From NCBI RefSeq assembly GCF_053078305.1, contig NZ_CP166879.1: a stretch of DNA of 64,000 nucleotides, one strand, 5' to 3'. The position numbers were made by a program, and so were the translations under genes. The notes beneath the pieces were generated by a model. It saw nothing but the letters and a program-made list of their open reading frames with translations, had not been told where the DNA came from and made no database searches. Below are positions 24,957 to 33,113 of this stretch, piece after piece. The number at the start of each line of letters is the position of its first letter. Positions within the stretch are counted from its first letter, which is position 1.

Positions 24957-25198
24957 CGCGATCTCTCTTAAATAAAAATAAACGTCGCAGATAATAAAGC
25001 TCTAATTAAACCAGGCACTATCAGAAATCGCTCATAACTAACGTGAGAAGTATTGTGTACTGGAGGGAGTTAATTTAACAATTTGAATTTACGTTATAGG
25101 TTTTACTGCTACTTTGATATTATTTCGCTCTCCTTAACTAAAAAGTTAAGTGGAGAGCGAAGTTAATATGTTAAATCACAGGGTATTTATTAATTTTT

Positions 25199-26248
25199 TC
25201 AGTCTGTTAGTGTGCGATTATCGATAACAAAACGATATTTCACATCACCGCGCAGCATTCGCTCATAGGCTTCATTAATTTGATCGGCCCGAATCATCTC
25301 TATATCAGCCACGATGCCATGTTCGGCGCAAAAATCGAGCATCTCCTGAGTTTCTGGAATGCCGCCAATCATAGAACCGGCTATCGCACGGCGTTTCATG
25401 ATCAGGTTGAAAACTTCCGGCGATTTATGCGGTGTCGCAGGCGCACCAACCAGCGTCATGGTGCCATCACGCTTCAGCAAGGTGGTAAAATCGTCGAGAT
25501 TATGTGGCGCAGCTACTGTATTCAAAATGAAATCGAAACTCTTCAGATGAGCCGCCATCTCATCGGCATTGCGTGAGTTAACAACTTCATCGGCCCCCAG
25601 GGCTTTTGCCGCTTCGCGTTTTGCCTCAGAAGTGGTAAATGCCACCACATGTGCCCCCATCGCGTGGGCCAGCTTAATCCCCATATGTCCCAGACCGCCG
25701 ATGCCGACCACGCCCACTTTTTTACCCGGCCCGGCCTGCCAGTGACGTAGCGGCGAGTACGTGGTGATCCCTGCACACAACAAAGGAGCCACCGCCGCCA
25801 GCTGCTCTTGCGGGTGACGAATACGCAGAACATATCGCTCATGAACGACGATCTGTTGTGAGTAGCCGCCCAGCGTATGGCCCGGTTCGTCCGGCGTCGG
25901 CGAGTTATAGGTGCCGGTCATGTGATCACAGTAGTTTTCCAGCCCGTCTTCACACTCTTCGCAATGTTTACAACTGTCGACAATGCAGCCGACACCGACC
26001 AGATCGCCCAGCGCATGTTTTTCTACCTGATCACCAACGGCTACCACACGCCCCACAATTTCATGACCCGGCACGCAGGGGTAAACCGTCCCCGCCCACT
26101 CGGAACGGACCTGGTGGAGATCGGAATGGCAGACGCCACAGTAAGCGATTTCGATTTTGACATCATTCGGTCCCGGTTCACGCCGTGTGATATCCATCGG
26201 TTCAAGTGGTTGTTTAGCGGAATATGCACCAACAGCTTTGATCTTCAT
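25199..26248 (-). CDS. yahK: NADPH-dependent aldehyde reductase (Zn-dependent ADH family)
   Basis: 349 aa; MKIKAVGAYSAKQPLEPMDITRREPGPNDVKIEIAYCGVCHSDLHQ...; Rossmann motif GVVGIGGLGH. Confidence 0.95.
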   Translation of the reverse strand: MKIKAVGAYSAKQPLEPMDITRREPGPNDVKIEIAYCGVCHSDLHQVRSEWAGTVYPCVPGHEIVGRVVAVGDQVEKHALGDLVGVGCIVDSCKHCEECEDGLENYCDHMTGTYNSPTPDEPGHTLGGYSQQIVVHERYVLRIRHPQEQLAAVAPLLCAGITTYSPLRHWQAGPGKKVGVVGIGGLGHMGIKLAHAMGAHVVAFTTSEAKREAAKALGADEVVNSRNADEMAAHLKSFDFILNTVAAPHNLDDFTTLLKRDGTMTLVGAPATPHKSPEVFNLIMKRRAIAGSMIGGIPETQEMLDFCAEHGIVADIEMIRADQINEAYERMLRGDVKYRFVIDNRTLTD

Positions 26249-26334
26249 TGTGTTTACTCCTGATTAGCTATGTGTATTTGGCGACGCCTGATATGTCATC
26301 GCGGCAAAACGCGTCCATTGAATATAGCCAATAT

Positions 26335-27321
26335 TTAAACCACCCGATCCAGCCCCAACATGCCGCGAGCCTGAATGAAACAAAGCAGCAACGTTCCCCA
26401 TAAGGCCATCGTCAGGTAGGGGCTTATACCGAGAATATTGAAGCCGCTTTCAATAATTTGCAGAAGAAACAGCGCCAACACCATACCAATTATCCGCCCG
26501 CTGCCGCCGTCCGGATTAACCCCGCCGAGTACTGCCGCGAGGATTGACACCAGCAAGTACGATTCGCCATAAGAGGCCTTAGCCGAGTTGAGTTTCGACA
26601 TCATCAAAAATGCCGCTACCGCACAAAGCAAGGCGGAAATGACATAAACCCAAATCAGCACCCGACGAGTGTTAATGCCGGAGTAAAGTGTTGCTCGTTC
26701 GTTAGACCCAATCAGGTAAATGGCTTTACCGAGCGGCGTTTTCTCCAGCAATACCCACAGCCCCAGTGCCACTGCGGCAAACAACCACATCGGTAGCGGA
26801 ATACCGAACCATTGCGCATGATTCAACCACAACACCCATGAGGGATAATTGGCAATGGCGCTACCGCCTGTCACCAGAATATTTATCCCTTTGAGCAACG
26901 TCATCATCCCAAGCGTTGCAAGAATTGGCGACACTCGAATACCAGCAATCAATACGCCGTTACATAAACCGATTATCACCGCCGCGCCAGCGCCCGCCAG
27001 TAACGTAGCGACAACCGTAGCAATACCCGGTGGATACTGAGTCGCCACCCACGCCATCACCAGTGAACAGGCGTTAGCAGTGGCTATAATTGACAAGTTA
27101 ATGCCACCGCAAAGCATGGTCACCGCCATAGCCAACGCCAGAATGCCCAGCACGGGCATTTGCGAAGCGACGGACTGGAAATTACTTATCGACCAGAAAA
27201 TCTCCGGCATAGTAATGCTGAACGCGGCAACAGTTAACACCAGCAGGCCGATCAAGTAAAACTCAACGTTATTACGCCACGATTTTTTCATAGCAGACTC
27301 CGGTTCTGATGCTGACTCCAC
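26335..27321 (-). CDS. Sugar ABC transporter permease (CUT2 family)
   Basis: 328 aa multi-pass membrane protein; overlaps the preceding permease gene; absent at this position in K-12. Confidence 0.85.
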   Translation of the reverse strand: MESASEPESAMKKSWRNNVEFYLIGLLVLTVAAFSITMPEIFWSISNFQSVASQMPVLGILALAMAVTMLCGGINLSIIATANACSLVMAWVATQYPPGIATVVATLLAGAGAAVIIGLCNGVLIAGIRVSPILATLGMMTLLKGINILVTGGSAIANYPSWVLWLNHAQWFGIPLPMWLFAAVALGLWVLLEKTPLGKAIYLIGSNERATLYSGINTRRVLIWVYVISALLCAVAAFLMMSKLNSAKASYGESYLLVSILAAVLGGVNPDGGSGRIIGMVLALFLLQIIESGFNILGISPYLTMALWGTLLLCFIQARGMLGLDRVV

Positions 27322-28259
27322 GCCGTGGCACTAATGCTGGCAACGATGATGATGCCGGTGATCAATGTTTGCCAGTAAGACGAGACTCCCAATAAATTTA
27401 GCCCGTTTTGCATCACTGCCAACAACACCACGCCGAGCAAAGTACCGGTTAACGTGCCGCGCCCGCCGAGCAAACTAGTGCCGCCAAGCACCACCGCAGC
27501 CAGTACTGTCAGCTCATAACCCAGAAGAGAATCGGGGGCGACAGTCATCACCGTCCACGACTGCACTACACCCGCAGCGCCAGACATCAATCCCATATAG
27601 CCATAGACGAAAAGTTGCAGTTTCAGCACGCTAAAGCCGATGCGACTGGCTGATTCGCGGTTCCCGCCAAGGGCATAAATTTTGCGCCCTACACTGGTGA
27701 AATTCATGATAAACGCTGTTAGCAGCACCACCGTAATCATGGCGATCAGCGGCAGACCAAGGCCATAGTCATAGCCATCAGCATCGGTGTACTTGAACAA
27801 CATAACCCCCAGCTCAAACCACGGCGGAAAGTCGTACAGCCACACACCTTTACTCAACCATAACAGCAGGCCATAGAAAATATTCAGCGTCGAGATAGTG
27901 ATGATGATAGAAGGCACCCGTAGGCGATTAACCAGTAAGGCGTTAATTAAGCCAAGTAAAATGCCGATGCAGCCTGCCAGTGCAAACGCGACAGCGAAGT
28001 TGCCACCAATTTTTTGCAGCAACAGCACCATGCCGTATTGCGCAATGATGGTCATTGCTGGAAACGAAATATCAATTCCACCGGAAATCAACACCACAAA
28101 CAAACCACAGGCGAGAATAGTCAACATGGCATAGTTATTGGCGAGATCGTACAAATTACCGAATGTCAGAAACTCGTCGCTGCGCCAGGCAAGGCCAACA
28201 AACAGCACCACAATCAGTAATGCCAGCCAGAATTCATGGCGTTTTTTCAGTTCAGCCAT
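27288..28259 (-). CDS. Sugar ABC transporter permease (CUT2 family)
   Basis: 323 aa multi-pass membrane protein; overlaps the ATPase stop. Confidence 0.85.
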   Translation of the reverse strand: MAELKKRHEFWLALLIVVLFVGLAWRSDEFLTFGNLYDLANNYAMLTILACGLFVVLISGGIDISFPAMTIIAQYGMVLLLQKIGGNFAVAFALAGCIGILLGLINALLVNRLRVPSIIITISTLNIFYGLLLWLSKGVWLYDFPPWFELGVMLFKYTDADGYDYGLGLPLIAMITVVLLTAFIMNFTSVGRKIYALGGNRESASRIGFSVLKLQLFVYGYMGLMSGAAGVVQSWTVMTVAPDSLLGYELTVLAAVVLGGTSLLGGRGTLTGTLLGVVLLAVMQNGLNLLGVSSYWQTLITGIIIVASISATAWSQHQNRSLL

Positions 28260-29736
28260 TTACCACCTCCGCAATCCTGGCCTGAGAACTGCTGTCAGGC
28301 AGGAAGCTATGGGTGATCTGACCTTTTTGCATTACCAAAATCCGGTGGCTTTGATACCACGCTTCTTCAATTTCATCGCAGATCATCAATACCGCAATGC
28401 CATGAGCCGCCAGATCGCTGATAATGCCGTATATTCCTGCTTTGTTGGCGATATCAACACCGACTGTCGGGCTATCGAGAATCAACAGTCGTGGCCCAAT
28501 CGCCAGCCATTTGGCGATCGATACTCGCTGCGCGTTACCACCAGAAAGCGTATTCACCGGGAGATGAGGATCAGAGACTTTGATGGTCAATGCCTTGATT
28601 AGCCTGTCCACCAGGTCACGCACTTTAGCTTCACTCAGAAAGCCGAAGCGATCTTTTACCTTGTGAAAAACAGTGCTAATGATGTTGTCTTCAATAGATT
28701 GCGCCATCACCAAACCGCGCGACATGCGATCTTCCGAAACATAACCAATACCGTGGCGGATGGCGTCCTGGTTACTATGCAGTGTAACCGGCTGGCCGTT
28801 GATGAGGATCTCGCCAGCATCCGGTCGGGTCATACCAAAGAGACTCAGACATAATTCCGTGCGCCCCGCACCAAGCAGGCCAACAATCGATACCACTTCG
28901 CCCGCTTCCACCCGCAAGTTAATATTTAGATATTCCCCATGACGACTTAAATTACGCACCTCCAGCACCGGGGTGCTGGATTTTCCCTGCCACAACTCTC
29001 GCACCTGATATTCAAACTCCTGGCCGGTCATCAGGAAACCGAGTTGTTTTGTGGTCATCTCTGCAGCCGGAAAAGTCCCGACCAGCTCACCATCTTTCAG
29101 CACTGAAATACGGTCGGAAACTTCCATCACTTCTTCCAGACGATGACTGACGAAGACCACGCAGATCCCGCGTTCACGCAATTGATGCACCACCTGTAAT
29201 AACCCTTGCACTTCCTGATGGGTCAGCGAAGCGGTTGGTTCATCCATCACGATCAACCGTGCGTCCTGCGCCAGTGCACGGCAAATAGCCACCAGCTGAC
29301 AGCGGGCAATTGAAAGCTCAGAAACGAGTGTATCCAGTGGCAATGTGACGTTAATACTGGTCATTGCCGCCTGCGCCACCTCACGCAGACGACGGCGGTT
29401 AACAAACAGACCGTGGTGATAGTGATTCACGGCGATATTCTCCCAGACACTCAGGTTAGGAAATAAAGAGAGGTCCTGATAAATCACCTGAATCCCCTGC
29501 GCCACCGAAGCGGCGGGTGTCAGCTTTGACCAGTTTTTCCCACCAAGCGTAATTTCCGCTCCCTCATCCGGGCGATAAACACCGGACATAATTTTAATCA
29601 ACGTCGATTTACCACAGCCGTTTTGCCCGGCAAGGCAGTGCACTTCACCCGACATAAAGTCGAGAGAAACATCGCGCAGCGCTCGCGTGGCATGAAACGT
29701 TTTGTTGATATGACGAAGGGAAAGGAAGGTTTCCAT
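28252..29736 (-). CDS. Sugar ABC transporter ATP-binding protein (two fused NBDs)
   Basis: Walker A GQNGCGKST and a second NBD (GLLGAGRTE); LSGGNAQR signature; start taken at ATG 29736 with AGGGGA upstream (track ORF starts at TTG 29751). Confidence 0.88.
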   Translation of the reverse strand: METFLSLRHINKTFHATRALRDVSLDFMSGEVHCLAGQNGCGKSTLIKIMSGVYRPDEGAEITLGGKNWSKLTPAASVAQGIQVIYQDLSLFPNLSVWENIAVNHYHHGLFVNRRRLREVAQAAMTSINVTLPLDTLVSELSIARCQLVAICRALAQDARLIVMDEPTASLTHQEVQGLLQVVHQLRERGICVVFVSHRLEEVMEVSDRISVLKDGELVGTFPAAEMTTKQLGFLMTGQEFEYQVRELWQGKSSTPVLEVRNLSRHGEYLNINLRVEAGEVVSIVGLLGAGRTELCLSLFGMTRPDAGEILINGQPVTLHSNQDAIRHGIGYVSEDRMSRGLVMAQSIEDNIISTVFHKVKDRFGFLSEAKVRDLVDRLIKALTIKVSDPHLPVNTLSGGNAQRVSIAKWLAIGPRLLILDSPTVGVDIANKAGIYGIISDLAAHGIAVLMICDEIEEAWYQSHRILVMQKGQITHSFLPDSSSQARIAEVVNG

Positions 29737-29784
29737 AACATCCCCTGGCAATAAGAATCGGGGCTTTCGCCCCGAAGAAATGGA

Positions 29785-30771
29785 TTAATAAAGTGAGTCG
29801 ATATTGTCTTTGTTGACCAGTAATACCTTATGGAAACGGATAATTCGCTTATCCATATCTACGTCGGCCTTACCCAGATTCTGCATTTCTAATCCAGGTT
29901 TGATCTCTTCACCCTTCAGCAACGTGCTGGCGACGGCTGCGAGTGCGTAACCTGCAGAGGCCGGATCGTAAGTAATCCCTTCGGTGATATCACCACTTTT
30001 AATCAGTGATGCCGCCTGTGAAGGGATCATCATGCCATAGACTGCGACTTTATTTTTCGCCCGTTTCTCTTTCACCGCACGTCCCGCGCCAATCGGACCG
30101 TTTGAACCAAAGGAGACAACCGCTTTCAAGTCAGGATAGGTTTTCATCAGGTCCAGTGTAGTACGACGTGAGTCATTCACACTCTCGGCAACCGGCATGC
30201 GGCGGGTAACTTCATGCATATCCGGGTAATGCTCTTTCTGGTATTTCACCAGCAAGTCAGCCCATAAGTTATGCTGCGGCACGGTCAAACTACCCACGTA
30301 AATCACATAGCCGCCCTTGCCACCCATGCGTTTCGCCATATGCTCAACATATTCAGCGGCAAATTTTTCGTTATCAATGATTTCGATATCCCAGTTAGCA
30401 CTTGGCTGACCGGGGGATTCGTTGGTCAGAACCACAATTCCGGCATCTCGCGCTTTTTTGAATACCGGTTCCAGCACGTTGGCATCGTTTGGCACGATAG
30501 TAATTGCATTAACCTTACGGGCGATTAAATCCTCAATAATTTTAACTTGTTGCGGAGCATCAGTACTTGAAGGCCCCACCTGTGAGGCATTAACACCAAA
30601 GGCTTTACCCGCCTCAACCACACCTTCGCCCATGCGATTAAACCACGGCATACCATCGACTTTAGAAATATTCACCACGACTTTTTCCGCTGCCTGGAGC
30701 GGCGCAGAAATTAGCGCAGCGCCTAATAACAGCGAAGACACCATATTGATAACAAAACGTTTATTCATCAT
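29785..30771 (-). CDS. Periplasmic sugar-binding protein (RbsB/YtfQ-like)
   Basis: 328 aa with signal peptide MMNKRFVINMVSSLLLGAALISAPLQA; periplasmic binding protein type I fold. Confidence 0.85.
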   Translation of the reverse strand: MMNKRFVINMVSSLLLGAALISAPLQAAEKVVVNISKVDGMPWFNRMGEGVVEAGKAFGVNASQVGPSSTDAPQQVKIIEDLIARKVNAITIVPNDANVLEPVFKKARDAGIVVLTNESPGQPSANWDIEIIDNEKFAAEYVEHMAKRMGGKGGYVIYVGSLTVPQHNLWADLLVKYQKEHYPDMHEVTRRMPVAESVNDSRRTTLDLMKTYPDLKAVVSFGSNGPIGAGRAVKEKRAKNKVAVYGMMIPSQAASLIKSGDITEGITYDPASAGYALAAVASTLLKGEEIKPGLEMQNLGKADVDMDKRIIRFHKVLLVNKDNIDSLY

Positions 30772-31021
30772 TTCAGCCTCATTGCAGGGTAGTCAGGAAG
30801 TGTTCGCCCAAATTAGCGCGCTGGAGAGAATGAGAATTTTCGAATATTTTTATGCAGAATAAACAGCTCTATTTCAGGCAGCTATTAAAAATATGGTTAT
30901 AAATATGGACAAAACGGGCAGCAATAATAAGTGTGACATTCATCACGTAAAAAATAGCAAAATAAACAAAATTAGCGATATTTTATGTTTGTGAGCTTAT
31001 TTCGTGTAGATAAATAGTTAT

Positions 31022-31432
31022 CTACACAACGTCAATAAGGGCATATTCTTCAAAGATAACGTCCATTTCTGGTGAATAGCTTCCTTCTGCCTGGAAAAAA
31101 CGACGGTGTTCATTACGCCAATATTCAAGACTGAGGTCACCTTCACCTTCCTTACGGGCAAGCTCCGCGGTGACATCAGAAAAGCGCAGTAAATGCAGGC
31201 CAATCACTCTGATAACACATACAGGCTCACCACGGCTATTTTCTACAATCTTATACTCACCAATCATCGGAAATGCGTTGTCTTCAATACATCCCGCCAG
31301 CGAACCACAGGAAGCTGTTTTAACACCAGTCGCAATCAACGTTGCGAGGTGATCGGCCAACGCGGCTGAATCGCCAAAAGTACAAAAGGAAGCATGGGGA
31401 TATTTTTGTGAGAATTTTTCTTTTATGGTCAT
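31022..31432 (-). CDS. ASCH-domain (PUA-like) protein
   Basis: MTIKEKFSQKYPHASFCTFGDSAALADHLATLIATGVKTASCGS... resembles ASCH/YqfB-type domains; start uncertain (ATG 31432 or TTG 31462). Confidence 0.6.
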   Translation of the reverse strand: MTIKEKFSQKYPHASFCTFGDSAALADHLATLIATGVKTASCGSLAGCIEDNAFPMIGEYKIVENSRGEPVCVIRVIGLHLLRFSDVTAELARKEGEGDLSLEYWRNEHRRFFQAEGSYSPEMDVIFEEYALIDVV

Positions 31433-31730
31433 GGCAATATTTTTGCGATTACGGAAAAACAAATCACATCTTAATTACTGTTGGTAACCATCAGCAAGAG
31501 TATCATTGGTTTTTCGATACTGAATCTTTTTTATCCGAAGCAGGTCACATTTATGGCCTGATAAATACCTTTGTTAAAACTCACTTTTGTGTATTTCTCT
31601 CAAATAATCCCCTGGAAATTATGCCGGGAGATTATAAAGTTCAGGATCATTCATTAGCAAACCATTCCCGCCCCACTCCCTGGGGCTTAAATCTCTTACT
31701 ATTCACCGTTGCAGGCGTTTCAAATGCGCA

Positions 31731-33113
31731 TCAACCTGCCACACTCCCCCACACCAGTTGCCCTTTATGGAACGTTGCGGTTCTCGGCGAGATACGCGCC
31801 ACCGCCTCGGCGGAACAGGAGGCGTCCACCAGCACAAAGCTGGCGTCATCCTGCGCTTTTGGCCATACACGCTCGCCTTTTTCATTCAGCGGCAATACAT
31901 CGCCAGTGGCTAGAAACAGCGAACGGGAGAGGTTCTGTTCGTTAGGACGAATATAGAGCTGCGCGTAGAGATTGGCTTTTTCCAGCATGTCGCCCAGACC
32001 ATAAGGCGACCAGTGGTCGATAACGCTGTCAGTGCCAGTCATCACTTTTACGCCTTTGTCGTGCAACTGTTTGAGCGGCATATGCAGCGTGCCAATCGGC
32101 ACTGTCGAGGCGATAGAAATTTGCTGCACCGCCATCCGGTGCGCCAGTTCATCTACCTGTTGTTCGTTGAGCGTTGCCAGCGCAAAGGCGTGACTGATGG
32201 TCAGCTTGCCCTTCAGCTGTGGCGTTTTCTCTACCGTTTCAACCATATAATTGATGGCCGCCACGCCTGCCGGAGTGGTTTCGTGCAGGTGAATATCGAC
32301 GCCTTTGTCGTAGTCCATCGCAATCTGAAACATGGTGTCGAGGGATTTTTCCATCGCGCCATCAACACTGGTCGGGTCCAGGCCGCCGACATAATGCGCC
32401 CCCGCCTGCATCGCTTCACGCATCAAAGGTTCAGATTTCGACAGTAGCAAACCGTGCTGCGGGAAGGCGACGATTTCACACTCAAAGCCCGCCTGACGTC
32501 GCGCCAGCACCGCCTGCAAATTTTGCAGATTTTTCAGGCCGGAAACCGGTTCGATATTGCAGTGGCTGCGGGCAATGGTGGTGCCTTTCGACTGCAATAA
32601 ATCAATCAGTTTTTCTGCCCGCTCCTGAGTGTACGGTTGCAGCTCCGGCAGCATTTTCTGCTCGAGTTTGATCATGTCCTGGATGGTGGTGCCTGCCGGG
32701 CGATTGAGCGAGCGCCACGGCCCGCCGTAAAAGGTTTTGTCGAGATGAATATGCATGTCGCGGGTGGTGGGCAGCATCAGCTTATCGCCAGCGTCATAGT
32801 GCGGCAGCGTGGCACCCGGGTGCTGCTTATTCTCGCGCAGTGCGACAATTTTGCCGTTCTGAATCTCCACGGTCTGGCGCGCCGTGCGGGTCTGCACCGC
32901 CACGCCATTTTCGTAGTCAAATCCAGTTTCCAGCAGCACGTTGTCGAGATAGTAATGCGGGTCAGTGATTTTCATGGTGTTGTTCGCTTCGCAGTTTGTG
33001 GTGCCAGAGACCGCCGCATGGGCGAGCGGCACAGAGGTACCAAACAGCGCGGCGGCGGTGACCATCTTACCGCTCTGGCTCAGAAATTCACGGCGGCTAT
33101 TGCTTTCTTTCAT
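31731..33113 (-). CDS. yahJ: Amidohydrolase-family deaminase
   Basis: 460 aa with Tat-like signal (SRREFLSQSGKMVTAAALFG); metal-dependent hydrolase motifs (HIHLD). Confidence 0.9.
   Translation of the reverse strand: MKESNSRREFLSQSGKMVTAAALFGTSVPLAHAAVSGTTNCEANNTMKITDPHYYLDNVLLETGFDYENGVAVQTRTARQTVEIQNGKIVALRENKQHPGATLPHYDAGDKLMLPTTRDMHIHLDKTFYGGPWRSLNRPAGTTIQDMIKLEQKMLPELQPYTQERAEKLIDLLQSKGTTIARSHCNIEPVSGLKNLQNLQAVLARRQAGFECEIVAFPQHGLLLSKSEPLMREAMQAGAHYVGGLDPTSVDGAMEKSLDTMFQIAMDYDKGVDIHLHETTPAGVAAINYMVETVEKTPQLKGKLTISHAFALATLNEQQVDELAHRMAVQQISIASTVPIGTLHMPLKQLHDKGVKVMTGTDSVIDHWSPYGLGDMLEKANLYAQLYIRPNEQNLSRSLFLATGDVLPLNEKGERVWPKAQDDASFVLVDASCSAEAVARISPRTATFHKGQLVWGSVAG

Follow-up and report, generated by a model that had tools for sequence, protein, structure and literature searches.

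The 64,000-nucleotide stretch of DNA that was analysed, referred to here as the window, carries on its minus strand a four-gene operon for a sugar ABC transporter. The first gene (29785-30771), the orthologue of Z0415, encodes a periplasmic sugar-binding protein (SBP) of 328 residues and ends with a TAA stop codon at 29787-29785. The second gene (28252-29736), the orthologue of Z0416-7, encodes an ABC ATPase with tandem nucleotide-binding domains and is intact in the window. It is followed by the gene of permease 1 (27288-28259; Z0418 orthologue), the start of which overlaps the ATPase stop by 8 nt, and by that of permease 2 (26335-27291 from the start assigned by PGAP; Z0419 orthologue), which overlaps permease 1 by 4 nt. 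The gap between the SBP and ATPase genes is the only non-overlapping junction in the operon. The ATPase gene starts at the ATG at 29736 and not at the upstream TTG at 29751, as supported by the PGAP annotation and by alignments of 80 orthologues. An earlier reading of the letters alone (the sequence-only reading) had named a binding-protein gene and an ATPase gene as the flanks of this gap; they are borne out, the former as a periplasmic binding protein of the CUT2 type and the latter as a tandem ABC ATPase, with the two permeases next.

NCBIfam models assign the system to the CUT2 monosaccharide importers, with an RhaS/LsrB-like SBP, an AraG/YtfR/XylG-like ATPase and AraH/RbsC-like permeases, all of them below the equivalog cut-offs. 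PGAP names the SBP (29785-30771) 'autoinducer 2 ABC transporter substrate-binding protein'. The protein scores 111.7 with the LsrB model, the equivalog cut-off of which is 384 bits, and 136 with the rhamnose SBP model, the cut-off of which is 342. The locus corresponds to Z0415-Z0419 of O-island 17, which has been named Aau for accessory L-arabinose uptake (PMC11127945). Aau is induced by L-arabinose through AraC and is enriched in LEE-positive strains; competitive persistence in the mouse gut requires Aau, which is a fitness determinant of enterohaemorrhagic E. coli (PMC11127945). Since the published experiments tie the operon to L-arabinose, the autoinducer 2 name given to the Aau SBP in the database is probably misleading.

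The region matches E. coli O111/STEC chromosomes with 100% identity. Of 5426 complete E. coli genomes, 2219 have the four transporter genes, together with an ASCH-domain ORF, placed between yahJ and yahK, and two of the approximately 2219 island copies are on records typed as plasmids. K-12 MG1655 is without the island, and its yahJ adjoins yahK directly. The ORF, of 146 residues in the window (31022-31462, minus strand) and assigned its ASCH domain by annotation elsewhere, lies between yahJ and the transporter genes within the same strain-variable insertion. At the other end of the island, the 86 nt that separate the stop codon of permease 2 from the start of yahK (26249-26334, minus strand) contain no terminator-like hairpin, and transcription of the island may run on into yahK.

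The promoter region of the operon (30772-30960, minus strand) contains a sigma-70-like site at 30951-30924 and a candidate AraC-half-site-like TCCATA motif. The latter belongs to the motif TGCCCGTTTTGTCCATA at approximately 30900-30930 (minus strand), close to the sigma-70-like match, which we take to resemble an AraC half-site (TAGC-N7-TCCATA). The half-site-like TGCCCGTTTTGTCCATA would be consistent with the published AraC dependence, for which an L-arabinose- and AraC-dependent promoter reporter comprising approximately 300 bp upstream of the first aau gene was used (PMC11127945).

The stem-loop between the SBP and ATPase genes

On the plus strand, positions 29759-29774 are CGGGGCTTTCGCCCCG; these letters form a stem of six perfect G/C pairs around a 4-nt loop and confirm the cggggc-tttc-gccccg element recognized in the sequence-only reading. 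Since the genes on either side lie on the minus strand, it is the reverse complement that occurs in the transcript, and the loop in the RNA is GAAA; the plus-strand letters given before were right, but UUUC is the wrong loop for the RNA. The two genes, previously taken to be 50 bp apart, are separated by 48 nt, counted from the TAA stop (29787-29785) to the ATG (29736). The RNA hairpin, UCGGGGC-GAAA-GCCCCGA, extends from 29758 to 29775 (minus strand) and consists of six G-C pairs and a closing U-A pair around a GNRA tetraloop (29768-29765). The closing pair, T29758/A29775, lengthens the stem from 6 to 7 bp and lowers the calculated folding energy of the isolated hairpin from -12.4 to -14.3 kcal/mol. 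The transcript is thus ordered ...UAA UCCAUUUCU (U CGGGGC GAAA GCCCCG A) UUCUUAUUGCC AGGGGA UGUU AUG..., with 9 nt between the SBP stop and the start of the hairpin and 21 nt between the end of the hairpin and the ATPase ATG. Directly 3' of the stem is the U-rich tail UUCUUAUU (29750-29757, minus strand), in which 6 of the 8 nucleotides past the 7-bp stem are U, or 5 of 8 when counted past the last G-C pair; the longest run of U is two. The Shine-Dalgarno (SD)-like AGGGGA at 29741-29746 (minus strand) precedes the ATPase ATG by 4 nt and is not covered by the hairpin.

Taken singly, the E. coli hairpin is at most marginally non-random. The window contains five perfect all-GC 6-bp hairpins, compared with 4.1 ± 2.3 expected from dinucleotide shuffles. 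The minimum free energy (MFE) of the 48-nt gap has a z-score of -1.9, with 4.5% of the shuffles folding as well, and in a 76-nt context around the hairpin the z-score is -1.1. A scan of positions 25000-32000 with the covariance models of Rfam 15, up to E = 10, yielded no match at the hairpin, and no second copy of the hairpin was found within the window. Each of the 2217 E. coli genomes that carry the island has a single copy of the 81-nt hairpin region, with an identity of at least 97.5%. A common variant in this region is a synonymous change in codon 4 of the ATPase gene; the sole stem variant observed in E. coli lacks the 5' C (1 nt), and its 7-bp stem persists through a U·G pair. As the single-sequence statistics are unconvincing, the case for selection rests on comparative evidence.

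Conservation and covariation in orthologous gaps

Twenty SBP homologues were aligned, and the alignment was used to fetch 80 orthologous loci from species-representative genomes. At each locus the SBP stop and the ATPase start were placed by tblastn and the gap was extracted. A core hairpin with a folding energy of -11 kcal/mol or lower occurs at the same place in 65 of 70 distinct SBP-ATPase gaps of Enterobacterales, Pasteurellaceae, Vibrionaceae and Aeromonas, with medians of 10 bp, -16.4 kcal/mol, 13 nt past the stop and 23 nt before the start. A clear hairpin is missing in four to five orthologues, namely those of Symbiopectobacterium (L009), Sodalis (L012), Acerihabitans (L018), a metagenome-assembled genome (MAG; L021) and Yersinia aldovae (L034). 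For 69 distinct gaps the median MFE z-score is -2.27; 40 of them score below -2 and 22 below -3. When length-matched coding windows of the same loci serve as the reference, 52% of the gaps have a better folding energy per nucleotide than the 5th percentile.

The position of the hairpin is shared but its sequence is not. At least eight unrelated stems were distinguished, in E. coli/Klebsiella, Mangrovibacter, Aeromonas, Leclercia, Providencia/Budvicia, Yersinia, Pasteurellaceae and Vibrio/Morganella. The stem-loop is CGGGGC-GAAA-GCCCCG in E. coli, CCGGGGCG-CCUGC-CGCCCCGG in Klebsiella, CGGGGCGG-GCGA-CCGCCCCG in Franconibacter, GGUGGCGCCA-AGC-UGGCGCCACC in Aeromonas, CCGCACGCCCU-GAC-AGGGCGUGCGG in Leclercia, AUACGUCCUUGCCG-...-UGGCAAGGACGUAU in Providencia and GCAGAGCCGG...CCGGCUCUGC in Yersinia. 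Pasteurellaceae contain either AUAUGGGUUC...GAACCCAUAU or ACCGGGUUC...GAACCCGGU, and Vibrio, Photobacterium and Morganella share the form GGGC(A/G)G(U/C)G...C(G/A)C(U/C)GCCC. In the MAFFT/RNAalifold alignment of the E. coli-Klebsiella-Franconibacter-Symbiopectobacterium group, two sequences were one column off register, which created spurious 'broken' pairs; folded singly, each sequence of this group forms a perfect stem of 7-8 bp.

Some orthologous loci call for separate comment. In the Yersinia/Budvicia orthologues L025, L028, L030, L031, L033 and L034 the gap is 138-287 nt long, with extra sequence inserted after the hairpin. In the Y. aldovae gap (L034) the usual GCAGAGCC hairpin is missing, and the inserted sequence is similar to an ERIC/IRU repeat. 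A 4.7-kb contig of a 'Bacteroidales bacterium' MAG (L002, SFEK01000152.1) shares 99% identity with the E. coli aau locus, hairpin included, and is almost certainly a mis-binned E. coli contig.

Within the lineages, both partners of a pair have changed together. Double changes were found in five pairs of the Yersinia stem, in seven of the Pasteurellaceae stem and in four of the Vibrio/Morganella stem, with 92-96% of the cells paired; Providencia, Budvicia and Limnobaculum contribute three compensated pairs. In Yersinia, Pasteurellaceae and Vibrio/Morganella, the covariation scores were higher than those of all 500 column shuffles and exceeded every control with a slid register by a factor of 1.3 to 3. 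The cells are not phylogenetically independent; the slid-register controls preserve relatedness, yet they score well below the native register. Among the stem cells of the orthologues that depart from Watson-Crick pairing, approximately 41 are G·U and 2 are A·C on the sense strand. Since G·U falls on the sense strand, the selected structure is an mRNA helix and not a DNA cruciform or an antisense element. The stems are unrelated between lineages and carry compensatory changes, which demonstrates selection on the RNA structure itself. These comparisons show a hairpin that has been kept at the SBP-ATPase gap by selection on RNA shape rather than on sequence.

Termination and other explanations

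The E. coli element has much in common with a canonical Rho-independent terminator: a G/C-rich stem of at least 5 bp, a short (4-nt) loop and a U-rich stretch behind it. A scan for terminator-like consensus structures scored a match on the minus strand; the match has seven pairs, of which six are G-C, around a 4-nt loop, and its tail is TTCTTATT. It differs from such a terminator in that the U-tract UUCUUAUU is interrupted, with no run longer than UU, and is absent in most of the orthologues. The number of U residues in the 8 nt after the last G-C pair was used as a measure of the tract. It replaced an implementation of a d'Aubenton-Carafa-type score that gave +13 for E. coli and positive values for only 3 of 70 orthologues; this score was discarded after the textbook terminators rrnB T1 and lambda tR2 turned out negative. 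At least five U were counted in 13 of 65 orthologues and at least six in one of 65; a run of at least four U occurs in 6 of 65. The mean of 3.3 U per 8 nt, relative to 2.3 expected from composition, amounts to a modest enrichment. The E. coli tail is the most U-rich among close relatives, the closest of which have two (Klebsiella) and one (Franconibacter) U in 8 nt. Hairpin tails free of a U-tract are CTTAACCA in Klebsiella, CGCTAACA in Franconibacter and AAGCAAAA in Limnobaculum.

In RNA-seq experiments, L-arabinose induced Z0415 26.5-fold, Z0417 43-fold and Z0418 7-fold (PMC11127945). These values are fold-changes and not abundances, so that the larger value of the ATPase gene (43-fold) than of the SBP gene (26.5-fold) is uninformative on absolute levels. 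As the downstream genes are co-induced with the SBP gene, and as the AraC-dependent reporter was derived from the region upstream of the first gene, the hairpin is read through in vivo and is not a full stop; located inside a co-induced operon, it terminates transcription partially at most. The fall in induction from 43-fold (Z0417) to 7-fold (Z0418) might reflect polarity from a nonsense codon in the ATPase gene, which in TUV93-0 is interrupted by a stop at codon 259 (PMC11127945). The ATPase gene of the O157:H7 strain Z1723 (L001, 7365-8849) is likewise annotated as a pseudogene with an internal stop.

It could be argued that the hairpin is purely a leaky Rho-independent terminator and that an excess of SBP arises solely from the polymerases that stop there, without any stabilisation of the transcript. 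Besides the consensus match and the U-rich tail of E. coli, this explanation can draw on the clostridial SBP-downstream stem-loops, all 16 of which terminated to some degree when tested (PMC9045158). Arguing against it are the poor U-tract of E. coli, the retention of the hairpin in orthologues that have no U-tract and the finding in the same clostridial study that folding energy also affects the stability of the SBP transcript (PMC9045158). Pure termination is therefore considered unlikely. Because the hairpin persists without a U-tract in the orthologues, termination is regarded as only partial in E. coli and not as the conserved function.

The hairpin might instead terminate, or mark the 3' end of, a small regulatory RNA derived from the 3' end of the SBP mRNA, similar to SroC, which comes from the gltI-gltJ spacer. 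Known sRNAs that originate from 3' ends or spacers, such as SroC, share this geometry, and a hairpin with a U-rich tail could bind Hfq. With a spacer of 48 nt, however, any sRNA body would have to fall within the coding sequence; the U tail is short and broken up, Rfam contains no match and the orthologues conserve nothing but the stem, all of which makes an sRNA very improbable. A bolder version, in which the stem-loop ends a stable RNA derived from the Z0415 mRNA that serves as a trans-acting, Hfq-dependent regulator or sponge, and a milder one, in which the element works free of termination in most gamma-proteobacterial orthologues, are together a long shot. If a trans-acting RNA were made, the sensing of L-arabinose would be linked to other regulons of EHEC, paralleling SroC; if the milder version were true, the operon family would provide a clean natural system in which protection of mRNA 3' ends is separated from termination.

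A translational role, by which the element masks the ribosome-binding site (RBS) of the ATPase gene or blocks coupling so that ATPase translation is lowered and the mRNA unchanged, is highly improbable. The gap does uncouple SBP from ATPase translation, whereas the downstream genes overlap, and in a suboptimal fold CAUUUCU, 5' of the stem, pairs with the SD region AGGGGAUG to give a composite structure of -17.3 kcal/mol. The outer helix of this structure, however, contains three G·U pairs, spans a 12-nt internal loop and lacks conservation. Over 69 distinct orthologous gaps, the mean pairing probability of the SD was 0.57 in the native sequences and 0.66 when the upstream sequence was shuffled, and only 13 of the 69 gaps had the higher value in the native form; for E. 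coli the two values are 0.59 and 0.69. Since the SD is less paired in native than in shuffled gaps, an RBS-sequestering operator was rejected. If anything, the self-contained hairpin prevents interference of the G/C-rich spacer with the RBS.

Equally little speaks for a chance palindrome or a functionless remnant of a REP/BIME- or MITE-like mobile repeat: all-GC 6-bp hairpins do occur at the chance rate (5 versus 4.1), the z-score of the gap is only -1.9 and Rfam gives no match, but an element present a single time in each of 2217 E. coli genomes does not qualify as a dispersed repeat, the approximately 35-nt REP consensus bears no resemblance to the hairpin, the sole stem variant of E. coli still forms 7 bp through its U·G pair and chance cannot account for a hairpin that recurs in place in 65 of 70 gaps and shows covariation. 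REP elements are imperfect palindromes of approximately 35 nt that are present in hundreds of genomic copies and are often paired. Membership of the REP/BIME family was rejected because the hairpin region is single-copy in each of these genomes.

A proposed 3' end behind the SBP cistron

A stable stem just after a cistron is a classic barrier to PNPase and RNase II. In the malE-malF case of Newbury et al. 1987, a REP/BIME stabiliser of the malEFG transcript is said to guard the mRNA upstream of it against 3'->5' exonucleases, and binding protein is reportedly made in large excess as a result. The aau hairpin is likewise an intercistronic secondary structure after a binding-protein gene, and its function is proposed by analogy; it differs from the malE-malF REP in being a unique, perfect hairpin of 18 nt that occurs a single time in each genome. 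Selective RNA processing and stabilisation (SRPS) rests on such stems, and the malE-malF case is cited as an instance (PMC8219983). Stem-loops after 5' SBP genes set the ratio of SBP to translocator transcripts through premature termination and through stabilisation of the SBP transcript (PMC9045158; PMC8219983). They carry fewer U residues than canonical terminators (PMC9045158, Wu et al. 2022) and are found after the SBP genes of at least 15 importers of E. coli K-12, among them araF, mglB, xylF, alsB, ytfQ, hisJ, livK, oppA, dppA, pstS, ugpB and malE (PMC9045158).

The aau element agrees with the class of Wu et al. 2022 in being a single G/C-rich stem-loop with low U content right after the first (SBP) gene and with no antiterminator, and all SBP-first CUT2 paralogues (araFGH, mglBAC, xylFGH, alsBAC, ytfQRT-yjfF) possess one. 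It differs in the shorter stem, of 6-7 bp and -14 kcal/mol, compared with -17 to -25 kcal/mol of the listed elements. Among the clostridial stems, one of 5 bp hardly terminated and the optimum was approximately 11 bp (PMC9045158), so that 6-7 bp lies at the short end of the stems that were functional in that study. The aau operon does not appear in the K-12 list because it is absent from K-12. In position, stability, strand, conservation and, according to the literature, read-through, the aau hairpin corresponds to the SBP-downstream stem-loops; it is a previously unlisted member of this known class in an operon that has already been described. The stabilising (SSL) and stabilising-plus-terminating (STSL) stem-loops of SRPS are also intra-operonic and intergenic, and their folding energy sets the relative transcript levels (PMC8219983). 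An STSL is recognized by a discontinuous poly(U) tail with a U content above 5, and the prediction of SRPS was validated in Gram-positive bacteria (PMC8219983). By this rule the E. coli element would be an STSL and most orthologues SSLs, although the authors call their predictor not applicable to E. coli.

Based on these observations, it is proposed, with a probability of roughly 0.7, that the stem-loop forms and protects a 3' end after the SBP cistron and thereby raises the level of SBP mRNA over that of the ATPase and permease mRNA. In this model, the cis-acting stem-loop on the aau mRNA, transcribed from the AraC-dependent promoter, would give rise to a 3' end just past the SBP cistron by two routes. 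In the first, leaky intrinsic termination, the 7-bp stem and the weak U-tract UUCUUAUU would stop a fraction of the polymerases in E. coli. In the second, transcripts that are read through would be cut downstream by an endonuclease and then trimmed by 3'->5' exonucleases, which would stall at the stem and leave a stable monocistronic SBP mRNA, in the manner of selective RNA processing and stabilisation. The excess of SBP mRNA would in turn yield an excess of binding protein over the ATPase and the permeases. How the two routes divide the work we infer from the comparison of stem and tail: because the stem is conserved and the U-tract is not, definition and protection of the 3' end are taken as the common function, and partial termination is taken as a lineage-specific addition. 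As the stem begins 9 nt past the stop (median of the orthologues, 13 nt), a terminating ribosome would cover its 5' arm, and such cover could make termination sensitive to how closely translation trails transcription. The three overlapping translocator genes are presumably translationally coupled, with the SBP gene alone set apart.

The sequence-only reading had considered the element to be the classic intercistronic arrangement by which a periplasmic binding protein is expressed more highly than the membrane components. This view gains support from the anatomy of the operon, the conservation in 65 of 70 gaps, the compensatory changes and the published precedent. Judged by anatomy, conservation and precedent, a raised ratio of SBP to translocator is the most likely outcome in the aau operon.

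The aau hairpin leaves current concepts of SBP-downstream stem-loops unchanged. Given the reported role of Aau in the fitness of enterohaemorrhagic E. coli, an understanding of what determines the subunit ratio of Aau would have some practical value, for example in cloning or heterologous expression of the locus. For the family, the aau gaps illustrate selection on RNA shape over sequence, in that one position is occupied by at least eight unrelated stems, usually with no U-tract. This suggests that the role shared by these elements in Gram-negative bacteria is the protection of 3' ends rather than termination.
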